The notes under the pieces were generated by a model. That model searched no databases and had not been told where the DNA came from. It saw nothing but the letters and a program-made list of their open reading frames with translations. The position numbers were made by a program, and so were the translations under genes. 64,000 nucleotides of DNA from Candidatus Sungiibacteriota bacterium (GTDB lineage Bacteria; Patescibacteriota; Minisyncoccia; Sungbacterales; SURF-37): contig JACQMJ010000004.1 of assembly GCA_016203665.1 (NCBI GenBank), positions 68,214-132,213 of the forward strand, in the 5' to 3' direction. Position 1 is the stretch's first letter, and every line of letters starts with the position of its first letter. This document shows, in pieces, positions 13,519 through 49,989 of this stretch.

Positions 13519-13965
13519 ATGCCCGTACTAGCAACCAGCCGCCGCGCCGAATTTGACTACGAGATCCTCGAAACATATGAGGCCGGCCTTGAACTTTTCG
13601 GGTTTGAAGTTAAATCAGTGCGTGCCGACCGCATGAACTTGGCAGGAGCGTTCGTGCTCATGCGCGGCGGAGAGGCATGGCTCGTCAATGCCGCCATCCC
13701 GCCCTACCAGGCCGCCAACACCCCGGCCGGCTACGATCCGGAACGTCCGCGAAAGCTCCTCCTACATCGCCGCGAGCTAAAGGAACTTATCGGCAAATCC
13801 GCGCAAAAGGGCTTGACTTTGGTCGCTTTACGGGTGTACACTAAAGGCCCGCGGATTAAAATCGCGTTCGGGCTTGCCCGCCGGAAAAAGACGTACGACA
13901 AGCGCGAGCGCATCCGCGAACGGGAAGATCGGAAAAAAATAGAACGGACCCTGCGCGAACGCTAG
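13519..13965 (+). CDS. smpB: SsrA-binding protein SmpB
   Basis: 148-aa ORF: ATSRRAEFDYEILETYEAGLELFGFEVKSVR...KLLLHRRE. Confidence 0.95.
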   Translation: MPVLATSRRAEFDYEILETYEAGLELFGFEVKSVRADRMNLAGAFVLMRGGEAWLVNAAIPPYQAANTPAGYDPERPRKLLLHRRELKELIGKSAQKGLTLVALRVYTKGPRIKIAFGLARRKKTYDKRERIREREDRKKIERTLRER

Positions 13966-14340
13966 GGGGTGATAGGCCTCGACGAAATATTGTTCGCTCA
14001 AGGGGCAGGCCGAGGGCGCTTGGGACACCTCGCTAAAAACCCGCAACCAATAAGTGCAAACTTATTCAAAAACGCCTTTAGTCCTGCTCTTGCAGTAGCC
14101 TAACGGCGTCCCCGCTCCGGTAAGCCGGAGCGGCATCGGCGGACGGATGCTCGATACGTCCTCACCGGTGTCACTTATCGAGCTGGGCCGCGGAACTCCG
14201 GTACCGCGGCCGAGATGCACCGGAAAAGCGTTGGAGGATTTTGCCCGGTTTAACCGCCAATGCCCATACCAGCCGGGCTACGCCTGTAAACCTCATGAGC
14301 CGGCATATTCCGGACGGGAGTTCAATTCTCCCCACCTCCA
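13965..14340 (+). ncRNA. ssrA: tmRNA (SsrA)
   Basis: The 5' GGGGGUG pairs with the 3' CACCUCC, including the G3:U alanine identity pair, followed by discriminator A. The T-arm is GGGAG-UUCAAUU-CUCCC. The tag reading frame runs from GCA at 14056 to TAA at 14103 and encodes ANLFKNAFSPALAVA. Confidence 0.9.
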
Positions 14341-14347
14341 TACCATG

Positions 14348-27127: not shown

Positions 27128-27198
27128 TCCTCTATTTTATACTAACCCTCCCTTGCGCAAAATAAAGATATTCAGTGTGGCAGGATTTGATTGTGATG

Positions 27199-27271
27199 CG
27201 TCCCCGAGAGGATTTGAACCTCTGGCCTCTTCCTTCGGAGGGAAGCGCTCTATCCGCTGAGCTACGGGGAC
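27199..27271 (-). tRNA. tRNA-Arg (anticodon CCG)
   Basis: Hand-folded 73-nt cloverleaf: GTCCCCG TA GCTC AGCGGATA GAGC G CTTCC CTCCGAA GGAAG AGGCC AGAGG TTCAAAT CCTCT CGGGGAC G. CCA is not encoded. Confidence 0.92.
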
Positions 27272-27276
27272 AACCG

Positions 27277-29064
27277 CTATTTCAATCCGATCTGAAGCTC
27301 GTAGAGCTTACGGTACACCCCGTTGGGGATCTGAATCAACTCCTCGTGCTTGCCGCGCTCGACGATGCGGCCCTTTTCGAGAACTAAAATCGTATCCGCC
27401 CGTCGGACGGTTGAAAGCCGGTGCGCGATAATGAACGTCGTCCGGCCAGCCATGAGCTCGGCCAGGGATTCCTGAATGAGCGCCTCGGATTTCGCATCCA
27501 GGGCCGAGGTCGGCTCGTCAAGAATCAGGATGCGGGGATTCCGCAAAATGGCCCGCGCGATGGCGATCCTCTGCTTCTGCCCGACCGAAAGCTTGATGCC
27601 GCGCTCGCCAACGAGCTGGCGGTACTTCCGCGAAAAGCGCTGGATAAAATCGTCGGCATGCGCCCGCTTGGCCGCCTCGAGAACCTTGGCATCCGATGCA
27701 CCGAAACTTCCGTAGCGGATATTGTTCTGGATCGTATCGTTGAAGAGCAATAGTTCCTGCGGCACGACCGCGACTTTGGAGCGGAGAAATTTCAAATCCA
27801 GCCGCGACACCTCATGGCCGTCAATAAATATTTTCCCTTTCTTGGGACGGTAATATCCGGAGATAAGATCAACCAGCGTGGACTTGCCCACCCCCGATTC
27901 GCCGACCAGGGCAAGGCTCTGGCCGGCTTTGGCCTCAAACGAAATGTCCTCAAGCACGTATTTGCGCCGCCCGCCGTAGGAAAAAGAGACGCCGCGAAAT
28001 TCAACGCTTCCGGCGAACTCCTTCGGGATGATGGCCCGCTCCGGCACATAAACCTCGGGCAGACGCTCGATAATCTTCTCGGCGCGATCCACGGCGGCCA
28101 GGCCGTTTTGCACTATATCCCAGTTATTGGCAATGATGGCAAGCGGCCGGAAGACGATGGCCGCATAGGCGTTGAAAGCCACAAGCCCGCCCGGCGTCAG
28201 GGCGCCCGCGCGGACGAGATAAAAAGAGTAGATGAAAATGCCGAGCTGCATCAGGGTGACGATAGCCCGCTGGTAGAAGGAGAGGCCCTGCCAGATGCGC
28301 ATGTAGTCCGACCACAACCGCGCAGCCTTTAGGCGGAAGAAGCGGAAAAGCTGGCGGCGCTCGTGGCCTTCGGCCGTGGCCTGCTTCACACCGTGCACGT
28401 TCATCATGATGTCCGAGGAGTAGCCAAAGGCCCAGGAATAGGCCTTATTCATCTTGTAGGAGATGGCCGAGAGGCCGGGCGCGGTGCGAATGAGCATGAC
28501 AAGGTAGAGGCCCATCGCGGCCACCACGACCAGGGCGAGCTTCGGCTGGATCAAAAAGACGATGACGAAGGTGAGGATGACCGAAAGGAAATCGGGCAGG
28601 AGGTCGACGAGCACGCGGTTAGTAATGGACTCCAGGCGATCCGAGCCGCGCTGGATGCGGCTGATAATCTCGCCCACGCGGTGCGACTTATGGAAGGAGA
28701 GCGGCAGTTCCAGCACGCGGGAGAACGCGGCGATGAGGTAGTCGGCATGAACGTCGGCCCCGAAGCGTTCCTGCCGAATGCTCTTCTGCCAGCCGGCAAT
28801 ATCGCCGCAGATGCGGATAACGAACCAGACGCCGATTAACGCCAATGCCGCCGGCACGATGCCGAGGAAAGGTACGGCCGCACTTCGCGGCTGGATGAGC
28901 GCATCAAAAATCTTCCCGGCGAGGAGCGGGACAAGGGCGTTGGCGCCGGCGTCGGCCAAACTGAATACGCTGATGACTATGAGCGCGGAGCGGTAGGGCT
29001 TCAGGTACTTCACAAAGATGGCGATGCCGCGCCGGAGCTTGGTTGTCTGGATTTTCTTGGGCAT
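27277..29064 (-). CDS. ABC exporter, fused permease/ATPase (MsbA-like type I exporter)
   Basis: Six N-terminal TM helices, then Walker A GESGVGKST, signature LSVGQKQR and Walker B LILDEPTSALD. The track start at 29076 is TTG; the ATG at 29064 is preferred. Confidence 0.9.
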   Translation of the reverse strand: MPKKIQTTKLRRGIAIFVKYLKPYRSALIVISVFSLADAGANALVPLLAGKIFDALIQPRSAAVPFLGIVPAALALIGVWFVIRICGDIAGWQKSIRQERFGADVHADYLIAAFSRVLELPLSFHKSHRVGEIISRIQRGSDRLESITNRVLVDLLPDFLSVILTFVIVFLIQPKLALVVVAAMGLYLVMLIRTAPGLSAISYKMNKAYSWAFGYSSDIMMNVHGVKQATAEGHERRQLFRFFRLKAARLWSDYMRIWQGLSFYQRAIVTLMQLGIFIYSFYLVRAGALTPGGLVAFNAYAAIVFRPLAIIANNWDIVQNGLAAVDRAEKIIERLPEVYVPERAIIPKEFAGSVEFRGVSFSYGGRRKYVLEDISFEAKAGQSLALVGESGVGKSTLVDLISGYYRPKKGKIFIDGHEVSRLDLKFLRSKVAVVPQELLLFNDTIQNNIRYGSFGASDAKVLEAAKRAHADDFIQRFSRKYRQLVGERGIKLSVGQKQRIAIARAILRNPRILILDEPTSALDAKSEALIQESLAELMAGRTTFIIAHRLSTVRRADTILVLEKGRIVERGKHEELIQIPNGVYRKLYELQIGLK

Positions 29065-29094
29065 AAAAACGAACAACCTAGTTTATCGTGAAAC

Positions 29095-29124
29095 ACAACG
29101 CCGCACCAGATGGTGCGGCGTTGT
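29095..29124 (-). terminator. 13-bp GC-rich hairpin (terminator, attenuator or processing site) just upstream of the ABC start
   Basis: acaacgccgcacc-agat-ggtgcggcgttgt is a perfect stem. The U-tract is weak on both strands, so its function is uncertain. Confidence 0.5.
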
Positions 29125-29128
29125 TTAT

Positions 29129-30056
29129 GAAAACATATCCGTTGTTCGCCCTCTAGGACCCCATAGTCACAAGTGTGTTGTAAGGTGCTGACACTGCTAT
29201 GGGATCTTAGAGGACGGAGGAGTGAGGTCGGCCGGGAGATCGCTACTGCTGAACCCCGGACACTGTTACACTCCTCGTCGTCCCGGTTTGCTTGGCGGGC
29301 CTACATCGCAGGATCGGCACAGTAGGACAGCTCTCGACTGCCGCTGGCTTAGCCGCGAAAGGGATCCGCCTGCCCGGCGCCGCACGGGCGCCTTTTGGCC
29401 ACTACGGGACGAAAACTTCGTAAAGAGAGCTACAGCTCTGCACCTCTGGTACGGAACAGCCAACGGCAACGCGCCATGGGCTCCCCCTCAGCGTTCGCAG
29501 ATGAGAGTTGTCGCCGAGGCAAGATTCGCGCGCCCCAGCGAACGGTGAACTGCCGTACGGGCATCCCCTGCGAGCCTGTCGGGGTTCAGGGATGCCTCAT
29601 AGCTGGAAACTACATCCGGCTTCCGCACGAATACCCTCCCCGGCCACACGATGACGATAAGCGCCTCTCATGTCCGGAGTCAGCTATCCACACGGCATGG
29701 GCCCGACTGCTCGCAAACCCACCCCCACGCTCGCCGGCCCTGGGCACGGGCTCAACCCCGCCCGCGTAACAGTGCGGCACGAAGTGGACCATAGTCACCT
29801 CCTTTCCCGCCGTTTTACCTTTCGATATTTCCTTCCCGAACCTGAGGCCTTTTAGCCGCTCCCGCACCCATCGCGGCAATACTTCTAGCCAGTCGTGCTT
29901 TGCCGGACAGCCGTTACTAAAGCATGTGCTGAAATAATCTAGAAATCTAGCGGATATACGCGCTTGCTGCGATCGGTGCGAAAGCGAGCCGGATTTTTGA
30001 GGAGGGTCAAAAACCCTTTATCAAAGCCCCAGATCTGGGAAGGAAATTTTCAAGAC
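29129..30056 (-). ncRNA. candidate large non-coding transcript, or giant 5' leader of the ABC gene
   Basis: No credible ORF in six frames across ~0.93 kb, despite coding-like GC richness. A near-consensus promoter points into it and a hairpin sits at its end. See findings. Confidence 0.4.
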
Positions 30057-30062
30057 AATTAT

Positions 30063-30090
30063 ATTATACACCCATAACCTATTTTGTCAA
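30063..30090 (-). promoter_or_regulatory. near-consensus sigma70-type promoter, TTGACA-16 nt-TATAAT
   Basis: On the reverse strand, TTGACA is at 30090-30085 and TATAAT at 30068-30063. An extra TTGACT is at 30104-30099. Confidence 0.7.
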
Positions 30091-30121
30091 GTCCATATAG
30101 TCAACTAACTTCTTAGTAACT

Positions 30122-30155
30122 CCCATACATGATTACGATCGTAATCATGTATGGG
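30122..30155. repeat. perfect 34-nt palindrome
   Basis: cccatacatgattacgatcgtaatcatgtatggg is its own reverse complement, centred on cgatcg. Confidence 0.95.
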
Positions 30156-30233
30156 GCTTGCAGACAAAAGACAAAAGAGAAAAACGGGCCTTGGCCCGCG
30201 TAAGCGTGGCTTTTAGTTTTCAACTTTTAGATC

Positions 30234-30725
30234 CTATGTATGGAGGTCGGCTACCTGCGAGGCGCCGAAAGAGCCGGGCTTGATCACTGCCGCAAACCCG
30301 AAGCCCTTCACCATGCCGACCACCTGGTCAATTAAATCCCGCGTCGGGCCGTTCACGCCGACGTCAATGTGCACTTCAATCTTGCCGTCCCACAAAAACT
30401 CCTCGCCGAGTTTTTCCCGTAGGCCGGAGCGGATTTCCTGGGCCAGGGTAATGGATTGCAGTGCCTCTCCGGTAATGCGGTCGCGGAGGGTATGAAAGCT
30501 CTTCTTCTCCGATGTGACCCAGAAATGCACCGCGCCGTTGCCGATCCGCCGTACGGTTACGGCCGTGACGAGCGGCACGGGATTTCGAGCCGCCGAGTCC
30601 GAGCCGACGATGATCTGGTAGGAGCGCTCCGGCTGGGAGCGAATATAGGCCGTAATTTCCTCGAAGACCCGCCCGAGCGTGAGTGTGCCTTTGGACCAGC
30701 TATGGAATTGTGTCATTTCAGCCAT
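30234..30725 (-). CDS. YkuK-like protein (DUF458, RNase H-like fold)
   Basis: The 163-aa ORF matches, along its length, the B. subtilis YkuK pattern as I recall it: ...YQIIVGSDSA...VTAVTVRRIGNGA...HIDVG.NG.TRDLI...V.G.GF...IKP..F.AS..A... Confidence 0.8.
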   Translation of the reverse strand: MAEMTQFHSWSKGTLTLGRVFEEITAYIRSQPERSYQIIVGSDSAARNPVPLVTAVTVRRIGNGAVHFWVTSEKKSFHTLRDRITGEALQSITLAQEIRSGLREKLGEEFLWDGKIEVHIDVGVNGPTRDLIDQVVGMVKGFGFAAVIKPGSFGASQVADLHT

Positions 30726-49494: not shown

Positions 49495-49579
49495 GTTTAA
49501 TCAGTTTAAGGAGTTTAATGAGTCGGTGGATTTAAAAAAGGGGGGAAAGAAAAAACTCCCAAAATTTCCATCTAAGCGA

Positions 49580-49683
49580 GGCCGCCTAGGTTTTTGTCCA
49601 TCGGGTTGGCAGTGGGATCCCTGGGCCGAAAATCGCTTCGCGATTTTCTAAAAATAGAGGCGTGGACAAAAACCTAGGCGGCC
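49580..49683 (+). repeat. stem-closed intergenic element, family copy 2 (GGCAGTGGGA...GAGGCGT core)
   Basis: The outer arms ggccgcctaggtttttgtcca (49580-49600) and tggacaaaaacctaggcggcc (49663-49683) form a perfect 21-bp complement. The core motifs are at 49608-49617 and 49657-49663. The inner hairpin is gaaaatcgc-ttc-gcgattttc. Confidence 0.8.
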
Positions 49684-49692
49684 GAGCGCTTA

Positions 49693-49862
49693 CCTCCCCG
49701 GGCTGTGGGCAATTCTCCGGCTTGGGAGCGCGGAGGTCAGGACTGACGATTCGGGTACCCCAGTCGAACCCGCGACAAGGCGGAAACCAGGGTGCCGGGT
49801 AAGAGAAAGTCCCCATTCAGGCCAACGCGAATTGTACCTGAATTGCCCACAGCCCGGAGAGG
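49693..49862. repeat. 170-nt element bounded by 23-nt inverted repeats
   Basis: cctccccgggctgtgggcaattc (49693-49715) matches the reverse complement of gaattgcccacagcccggagagg (49840-49862) at 22 of 23 positions. Confidence 0.8.
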
Positions 49863-49989
49863 CCTACCGGCCGACCGGAAAGCAACGAGAAAGAGGGCTC
49901 GCGCCCTCCTCATTTCCTAAAAAATTCCAACCGGTTACTGCCTTAATTATATCAATTCTACATAGGTCTGTCAACTTACTTCCTGTCCC

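Follow-up and report, generated by a model that had tools for sequence, protein, structure and literature searches.

The locus and its predicted transcription unit

The window analysed here is a 64-kb stretch (64,000 nucleotides) of contig JACQMJ010000004.1 from Candidatus Sungiibacteriota bacterium, and the element of interest is an RNA unit predicted on its minus strand, in the gap between a YkuK-like gene and an ATP-binding cassette (ABC) exporter gene. The gap extends for ~1157 nt (~1.16 kb) from the stop of the YkuK-like gene (30234) to the start of the exporter (29064), and it lies within a conserved gene order composed of DoxX, DUF192, a DEDDh exonuclease-WYL protein, the YkuK-like protein and, beyond the gap, the ABC exporter. 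The YkuK-like gene encodes an RNase H-fold protein (PF04308) and has its own terminator at 30199-30184. The longest open reading frame (ORF) listed inside 29064-30234 is 124 aa, and once this spurious ORF is set aside the gap ranks as the largest in the window, where the median spacer is ~50 nt according to a crude gene call. A first-pass annotation of the window had pointed to a long ORF-free gap among short spacers and to a GC-rich body beside an AT-rich flank. Both descriptions hold, the GC content being 0.56-0.65 over about 29100-29900 and 0.40-0.43 over 29900-30200. No meaning is read here into the nearness of the unit to the two RNase H-like genes. Based on the promoter, folding and covariation evidence described below, it is very probable that the gap holds a genuine structured RNA encoded on the minus strand.

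Related Patescibacteria loci (labelled L0xx) were fetched for comparison, 24 of them via the YkuK-like protein and 19 more via exporter homologues of 71-88% identity. The exporter encoded in the window is 100% identical to a protein annotated from a 'Candidatus Sungbacteria' metagenome-assembled genome. The length of the gap among these relatives ranges from 113 nt (L049) to about 1.6 kb (L035).

The unit is preceded by a predicted sigma-70-type promoter on the minus strand (30063-30090), in which TTGACA (30090-30085) and TATAAT (30068-30063) are separated by a 16-nt spacer and match the consensus at 12/12 positions. Transcription would start near 30056. Shuffled versions of the region contain 0.9 promoter-like sites on average, and the position of the promoter is kept in at least 11 related loci, as TTGACA-N17-TATA(A/C)T is found at the homologous place in L025, L005, L007, L004, L010, L012, L008, L035, L034, L038 and L032. 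These results bear out the near-consensus minus-strand promoter that had been proposed earlier, and the extra TTGACT reported just upstream of it is located at 30104-30099. No consensus promoter was found on the plus strand between 28900 and 30400, although weak promoters could escape the scan. A perfect 34-bp palindrome (halves CCCATACATGATTACGA and TCGTAATCATGTATGGG) is present at 30122-30155, 32 nt upstream of the -35 box of the unit, and could be a candidate operator or a terminator-like hairpin. A palindrome with an identical TACGATCGTA core occupies the equivalent place in L007, and other relatives carry different palindromes there.

The opposite end of the unit is formed by a GC-rich hairpin (29095-29124, minus strand), which is probably an intrinsic terminator, although its U-tract is weak. 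Complementarity between the two arms (29095-29108 and 29111-29124) is 100% over 13-14 bp, consistent with the perfect 13-bp GC hairpin that had been described as closing the segment, and a hairpin of differing sequence is found at this position in 13/13 aligned loci. The hairpin is followed by the sequence GUUUCAC, which contains only 3 U, and a consensus terminator scan made no call due to the small number of U residues.

Results from folding energy calculations indicate that the segment between these ends is strongly structured, with a z of -8.2 for the minus strand and -5.0 for the plus strand. A re-run of the minus strand gave -7.3, compared with -1.0 to +0.7 for five 971-nt coding segments from the same window that served as controls.

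Conserved modules, small ORFs and distribution among relatives

Comparison with the related loci resolves the unit into four modules, referred to here as the 5' domain, mid-A, mid-B and the 3' module. Aligning related loci had been proposed as a check on the original prediction, and compensatory pairs are found in all four. The long form of the 5' domain (29827-30047, minus strand) consists of a 24-bp closing stem (P1-P2), a three-way junction, the hairpin P3 and an extended P4 arm. The 11-nt complement between 29827-29837 and 30037-30047 that had been recognised earlier is the base of this closing stem, an inverted repeat that covaries. Across seven loci, 18/32 pairs in the domain are compensatory and 94% of cells are paired; 0/500 shuffles reach the observed values, and slid partners are paired at 36-62%. 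The P4 arm of the long form is kept in 5 loci (13/65 pairs compensatory) and is variable across the wider set. The covariance model of this domain, R2, was built from short forms and detects exactly one copy per locus, with the single window copy located at the RNA-unit locus. At its best locus (L005), R2 scores 98 bits on the sense strand and 39 bits on the antisense strand.

The P3 hairpin (29994-30013, minus strand) combines a UUUUUGA/UCAAAAA stem with a C-rich loop, CCCUCC (30006-30001), that is anti-Shine-Dalgarno-like. The stem covaries among the relatives (UUUUGA/UCAAAA, UCCGA/UCGGA, CUCUAA/UUAGAG), and the CCCUCC loop is present in most loci. In L012 (2084-2237), the 5' domain (R2 match at 2084-2166) abuts a tRNA gene (2165-2237), and tRNAs also lie inside or just after the unit in L010 and L007.

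Mid-A (29545-29826, minus strand) is homologous in L003, L025, L035, L038 and L008. It is defined by the blocks UAAAACGGCG, AAAGGAGGUGA, GGGUUGAGCCC and GCCGYGUGGAU, together with a terminal hairpin (29594-29586/29570-29561) that has a conserved loop motif, GAGCCCC/GAACCCC. Nine of the 40 predicted pairs in mid-A are compensatory, and the terminal hairpin alters three consecutive pairs in L038 and L008. The conserved AAAGGAGGUGA block resembles a Shine-Dalgarno (SD) sequence (GGAGG, 29802-29798) and is followed by an ATG (29792-29790). The ORFs behind this SD-like site in six loci are 60, 7, 13, 7, 2 and 33 codons long and unrelated in sequence. Thus the SD-plus-start sites are kept across loci, while the ORF content behind them is variable.

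Other signals that involve mid-A were not retained. The first-pass annotation had listed three internal structure signals, two of which correspond to helices supported by covariation (the base of the 5' closing stem and stem B of the 3' module). The third, a ggacc..atagtcac repeat, is only a 10-nt exact repeat that is not conserved in L003 or L025. The repeated GTGACTATGG motif is therefore treated as chance, about 0.5 such repeats being expected per 1.2 kb by our estimate. The reading of TGTGGATAG in mid-A as a DnaA box or origin, made by eye, was dropped since the motif is not retained in relatives. A 10-nt perfect complement (29249-29258/29580-29589) between the loop of the mid-A terminal hairpin (CUGAACCCCG) and apical stem A (CGGGGUUCAG) was also dropped, as a match of this kind is close to what chance predicts in 1.2 kb and it is not conserved in L003 or L025.

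Mid-B (29279-29500, minus strand) is a multi-helix domain enclosed by the pairing of CGUCCCG (29411-29405) with CGGGACG (29285-29279). An alignment of six loci contains 52 pairs, of which 15 are compensatory, with 92% of cells paired. None of 500 shuffles reach the observed values, and slid controls are paired at 36-48%.

The 3' module (29142-29279, minus strand) contains two helices and the loop motif AGCACCUU. Stem A (GAGGAGUG, 29276-29269, with CACUCCUC) has the form GAGGAG../..CUCCUC, and stem B is a 20-bp helix that pairs 29213-29197 with 29166-29150. The 17-bp hairpin found previously at 29150-29166/29197-29213 is this stem B, and so belongs to a conserved two-helix module. With 10/30 compensatory pairs and 93.7% paired cells, the module is matched by 0/500 shuffles. 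The covariance model of this module, R1, has a single match in the window, scoring 93.3 bits on the minus strand compared with 28.4 on the plus strand. This difference indicates that the structure is strand-specific, as expected for an RNA. The module lies directly upstream of the exporter, at a distance of 60-230 nt, in all 13 fetched loci that have both an R1 match and an exporter, and a second, internal copy is present in L032, L034, L038, L005 and L007. The modules do not behave as dispersed repeats (REP, BOX or MITE-like), as R1 and R2 each match once in the 64-kb window and, among the fetched loci, match only at the RNA-unit locus.

A candidate micro-ORF of 15 codons (MARCRWLFRTRGAEL) is located inside mid-B at 29477-29430 on the minus strand, behind GAGGGGGAG. 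Its SD sequence and AUG sit within a conserved hairpin. The same place is occupied by an SD sequence, an AUG and an Arg-rich ORF of 11-22 codons in seven loci (the window, L003, L025, L032, L034, L035 and L038), the SD sequence being GGAGG or GGAGGA with a 3-9-nt spacer to the AUG. The predicted peptides are MARCRWLFRTRGAEL in the window, MVKHRRPFRIRSFWITR in L025, MTRRRRPFRIRSFGIER in L032, MARRRRWQFRSKHTWVMR in L038, MRRWRFRGRATEI in L034, MVTRPRRIRFWP in L035 and MVRHRRPFRCRSFWIQQQLFGG in L003. Length differences ahead of a conserved UUC-CGC are -6, 0 and +3 nt, and Arg is retained through CGU to AGA and CGG to AGG switches. Synonymous changes account for 4/10 and 4/9 of the changed codons in frame 0 compared with 0/13 and 0/10 in frame 2. 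This evidence that 29477-29430 is a conserved micro-ORF is suggestive but thin given the small sample, and the micro-ORF is considered a candidate only.

The modules are distributed unevenly among the relatives, most of which carry small ORFs on the same scaffold. Apart from the micro-ORF candidate, the full unit is ORF-depleted or ORF-free in the window, L003 and L025 only. In L034, L032 and L038, the scaffold is joined by a gene for an 88-128-aa membrane protein that lies between an internal and a second 3' module, and the unit ends in a terminator. L008 contains the 5' domain, a 61-aa membrane peptide, part of mid-A and the 3' module, and L035, which lacks the 5' domain, combines mid-A with a reduced mid-B and three small ORFs. 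In L005 and L007, several modules alternate with an ORF of ~82-90 aa and there is no exporter downstream. The unit of L004 comprises no more than the promoter, a 77-aa ORF and the 3' module. L010 and L012, whose exporters are 55-58% identical, retain just the promoter and 5' domain, downstream of which come tRNAs and small ORFs. Finally, in L049 (2873-2987) the YkuK-like gene and the exporter (76% identical) are just 113 nt apart and the RNA unit is absent. When compared with its closest relative, L034 (exporter 88% identical), the window looks like the product of a deletion between two copies of the 3' module.

The cargo carried by the relatives includes hydrophobic peptides of 37-61 aa, a membrane protein family of 88-93 aa, membrane proteins of 128 and 147 aa and soluble proteins of 77-95 aa. 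The multi-pass 88-93-aa family (L032:3527-3793, L038:3318-3599, L040:3356-3625) lies between the internal and terminal 3' modules, has a mutual identity of 36-61%, has no Pfam family on record and has no copy in the window. The 37-61-aa peptides (L034:1604-1717, L008:9517-9702, L012:2281-2415, L035:2569-2694) are encoded inside the unit behind a strong SD sequence, have one membrane span and a basic tail, and are reminiscent of type I toxins.

Database searches point to an RNA family that is absent from Rfam 15 and, so far, appears confined to a narrow clade. At gathering thresholds, Rfam 15 matches only a tmRNA and one tRNA in the window. At E <= 10, the interval 28800-30500 yields only chance hairpins from miRNA models, such as mir-28 at 31.5 bits (gathering threshold 64). 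Homologous units of seven relatives have no Rfam match either, so the suggested search with all Rfam models recognised no family in the unit, with OLE, GOLLD, ROOL, HEARO, raiA, RNase P, group I/II introns and riboswitches among the models covered. In a flank of L035 (8068-8176, minus strand) there is a SAM-I riboswitch match of 41.5 bits (gathering threshold 44.4, E = 4.5e-6) that is unrelated to the unit. No similar DNA was found by blastn in phage and plasmid collections. The 3' hairpin pattern had 0 matches in viral contigs, and the 5' domain pattern had two, both within a phage coding region and hence regarded as chance. Metagenome contigs contain only 3 matches to a 26-position pattern of the 3' module, so that either the family is rare or the pattern is too strict. 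Literature searches returned no account of such an RNA in Patescibacteria.

Elsewhere in the window, a tmRNA gene is located at 13965-14343 (tag peptide ANLFKNAFSPALAVA), and a tRNA-Arg(CCG) gene at 27198-27271 starts 5 nt past the exporter stop codon. A second ORF-free, strongly structured gap, flanked by genes for a GspE/PilB-like ATPase and a RuvB-like protein, lies at 49495-49989. Its folding z is -5.3 for the plus and -5.95 for the minus strand. Two long inverted repeats, nearly perfect and about 17-21 bp in length, lie within it, together with a minus-strand TTGACA-N17-TATAAT promoter near 49973-49945. No Rfam match was found there even at E <= 10, and R1 and R2 are also without a match.

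Interpretation and competing explanations

The explanation that we favor, with a probability of roughly 0.5, is that the gap encodes an independent, modular structured RNA that represents the ORF-depleted form of a structured small-ORF transcript and whose fold gates SD sequences. The minus-strand transcription unit would run from the strong sigma-70 promoter through a structured RNA of ~930 nt to the hairpin terminator, and its four separable modules would constitute a lineage-specific scaffold in Sungbacteria-like Patescibacteria. The fold is proposed to govern ribosome access and RNA stability, with SD-like purine tracts (GGAGG, GAGGAG) either held in helices or pairing with C-rich tracts (CCCUCC in P3, CUCCUC in stem A). 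The 20-24-bp stems are possible processing or stabilising elements, and the C-rich loop could act in trans on other SD sequences in an RNAIII-like manner. The ORF-depleted copy in the window may act mainly as an RNA and may still encode a micro-peptide. This specific SD-gating or dual-function mechanism is at best an even bet. Patescibacteria have tiny, tightly packed genomes (recall the median spacer of ~50 nt), and the allotment of >1 kb to a structurally conserved RNA with a strong promoter therefore implies a real function. The earlier idea of a single large non-coding RNA of ~900 nt stands with respect to structure; it does not stand as a monolithic molecule, as the four modules are gained and lost independently. 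Similarly, the term non-coding suits the variant found in the lineage of the window and does not suit most relatives, whose scaffold carries small ORFs.

Several observations weigh against this interpretation. The transcript ends rest on sequence inference, and the weak U-tract of the terminator makes some read-through into the exporter possible. Only 3 loci are fully ORF-free, and the 5-8 mutually related sequences available per module are below R-scape grade. Presence/absence variation among close relatives, as seen in L049, indicates that the unit is dispensable and that the site is a variable hotspot. The identity of the interval between the window and L003 or L025 is 0.64-0.66, barely above the 0.58-0.59 at 4-fold sites of the neighbouring gene, suggesting that selection affects islands within the interval instead of its full extent. 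A strict anti-SD role for P3 is at odds with the loop deviating in 3 of about 12 loci (CCAUCC in L025, CCACU in L038, CCCAUU in L039). The case for pairing between this loop and an SD-like site consists of a single double change in L025 that needs a 1-nt register shift; a pseudoknot between the two is consequently not claimed.

The first-pass annotation had attributed the composition of the gap to either selection or recent gene decay. The former is upheld in the form of a minus-strand structured RNA, and the reading as a recently decayed coding region, in which small ORFs have become pseudogenes and structure is incidental, is already largely refuted and thus highly improbable. Decay would fit the small ORFs found in the homologous unit of relatives, the mid-A segment of L008, which is open for 33 codons and has one frame faintly like the window (AxAxWIA), and the near-neutral overall identity. 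Protein and translated searches, which had been suggested as a check for a pseudogene, nevertheless reveal neither a homologue nor a frame preference. There were 0 Pfam matches for the ORFs scanned (124, 108 and 89 aa), phmmer found 0 relatives of the 124-aa ORF in 1.84 billion representative proteins, and a word-indexed search of 5.8 billion sequences returned 0 candidates for the sense-strand 89-aa ORF. No remnant of the small proteins of the relatives is detected in the window by tblastn. Comparison of the window, L003 and L025 by tblastx shows equal conservation in all three frames, in blocks split by indels that are not multiples of three. Compensatory changes far above shuffled and slid controls, and a z of -7 to -8 where real coding DNA is at about 0, also argue against decay. 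The annotation had likewise left open whether the segment is a non-coding RNA or a giant leader of the exporter. An independent unit is favored by the comparison, and an attenuator in which read-through of the weak terminator uses the 3' module and hairpin as an expression platform is unlikely, considerably so. Its appeal lies in the position of the 3' module 60-230 nt upstream of the exporter in all 13 loci noted above, the weak U-tract in the clade of the window and an exporter -10 box without a recognisable -35 box. In each of the 13 aligned loci, however, the sequence upstream of the exporter proceeds from the 3' module through the GC hairpin and a T-rich stretch to a TA..(A)T box and the ATG. 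This box is invariant at 13-20 nt before the ATG, reads TATAAT in 9 loci and is represented in the window, outside the unit, by TAAACT at 29085-29080 with the ATG at 29064-29062 (minus strand). No SD sequence is present between them; GGAGG is absent from this interval, in contrast to the very strong SD sequences that precede the small ORFs of the unit. The arrangement fits an exporter mRNA of its own with a short leader, and an internal AUG without an SD sequence would be translated poorly from a read-through transcript. Furthermore, no exporter lies downstream of the unit and its modules in L005 and L007, and L049 has the exporter with no unit. Internal copies of the 3' module are followed by unrelated small ORFs. 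Neither the uninterrupted 5' untranslated region nor the strict co-occurrence expected of an exporter leader or riboswitch is observed, as the hairpin and -10 box intervene.

Other explanations accept the structure and differ from the ORF-depleted small-ORF transcript in the role they assign to it. One of these, which is possible though doubtful, is a new class of modular RNA of ~0.9 kb, specific to ultra-small Patescibacteria, that is not the remnant of a small-ORF mRNA. Such an RNA might mimic the 3' end of 16S rRNA with its 5' domain, offer decoy SD sequences in its body, serve as a regulator of ribosomes or mRNA or as a ribonucleoprotein (RNP) scaffold, and encode an Arg-rich micro-peptide. 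A purely non-coding large RNA that acts in trans or as an OLE-like RNP scaffold, perhaps with membrane proteins or the exporter, would make the SD-like sites and micro-ORF by-products of GC-rich helices; we regard this as unlikely. It is consistent with the large, multi-domain and strongly structured nature of the unit and with the conserved loops AGCACCUU and GUAACGGCUAUCCGGCAG, which resemble binding or tertiary-contact sites. A small multi-pass membrane protein gene shares the unit with the scaffold in L032 and L038, recalling the ole-oapA arrangement, L040 has that gene with the 3' module only, and L034 has an unrelated 128-aa membrane ORF in the same place. In L012, processing of the adjoining tRNA by RNase P would set the 5' domain free as an RNA of ~85 nt. 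Evidence against an OLE-like role includes the lack of homology to OLE and all other Rfam families, the absence of a membrane protein gene from the window, and the independent gain and loss of modules together with the absence of the unit from L049, which would be unusual for an RNP of fixed architecture. At the level of DNA, the hairpin modules could instead be recombination sites bounding cassettes, like integron attC sites, as the cargo between modules differs among close relatives, the window resembles a deletion between two module copies, and the modules are imperfect palindromes of about 75 nt. This reading is very improbable: G-U pairs confer strand specificity, antisense model scores are less than half of the sense scores, and neither the 5' domain nor mid-A nor mid-B is a palindromic repeat. 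Inspection of the module sequences by eye, with no pattern search, revealed no attC core sites (RYYYAAC/GTTRRRY), the called neighbours include no integrase domains, and there is no similarity to plasmids or phages.

Comparison with known systems

To our knowledge, very few bacterial RNAs of this size with a structure supported by covariation are known, and none of such size is described for the Patescibacteria radiation in Rfam 15. The shuffling of RNA modules and small ORFs on a common scaffold provides a natural series from ORF-rich to ORF-free loci, which allows one to ask how structured mRNAs become non-coding RNAs, or the reverse. The analysis also provides three motifs ready for covariance modelling (the 5' domain, mid-B and the 3' module) and a testable candidate Arg-rich micro-peptide.

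The unit shares features with several known systems. Similar to RNAIII of Staphylococcus aureus, it is a multi-hairpin RNA of >0.5 kb with its own strong promoter, C-rich loops complementary to SD sequences and an embedded candidate ORF for a small peptide. In contrast to RNAIII, with which it has no sequence or structure homology, it belongs to the phylum Patescibacteria, is ~930 nt long with modules that are gained and lost, and has a C-rich loop that is not invariant; its micro-ORF and action in trans are only candidates. Type I toxin mRNAs (hok, aapA1) are highly structured, stable transcripts in which anti-SD tracts located upstream or downstream sequester the SD sequence, and they resemble the unit in presence/absence variation and in the hydrophobic, basic-tailed 37-61-aa peptides of the relatives. 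The unit in the window, however, contains no such hydrophobic type I toxin ORF (these are present in L034, L008, L012 and L035), showed no consensus plus-strand promoter for an antisense RNA in the scan noted above, is several times longer, and has relatives with ORFs that are not toxin-like.

The size of 0.6-0.9 kb and the many conserved helices are shared with OLE RNA (RF01071), GOLLD (RF01998), ROOL (RF03087) and HEARO (RF02033), as are the neighbourhoods, which include small membrane-protein genes for OLE and tRNAs for GOLLD and ROOL (compare L012, L010 and L007). The unit differs from these RNAs in having no covariance-model match at E <= 10, in not being phage-borne, in being modular and in its narrow clade. 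Lastly, intercistronic processing or stabiliser hairpins, such as the RNase III sites of phage T7 early mRNA, have in common with the unit the placement of 20-24-bp stems between small cistrons and at the ends (L005, L007, L032, L034, L038). The modules described here differ from such hairpins in possessing conserved loops and a second helix (GAGGAG/CUCCUC).

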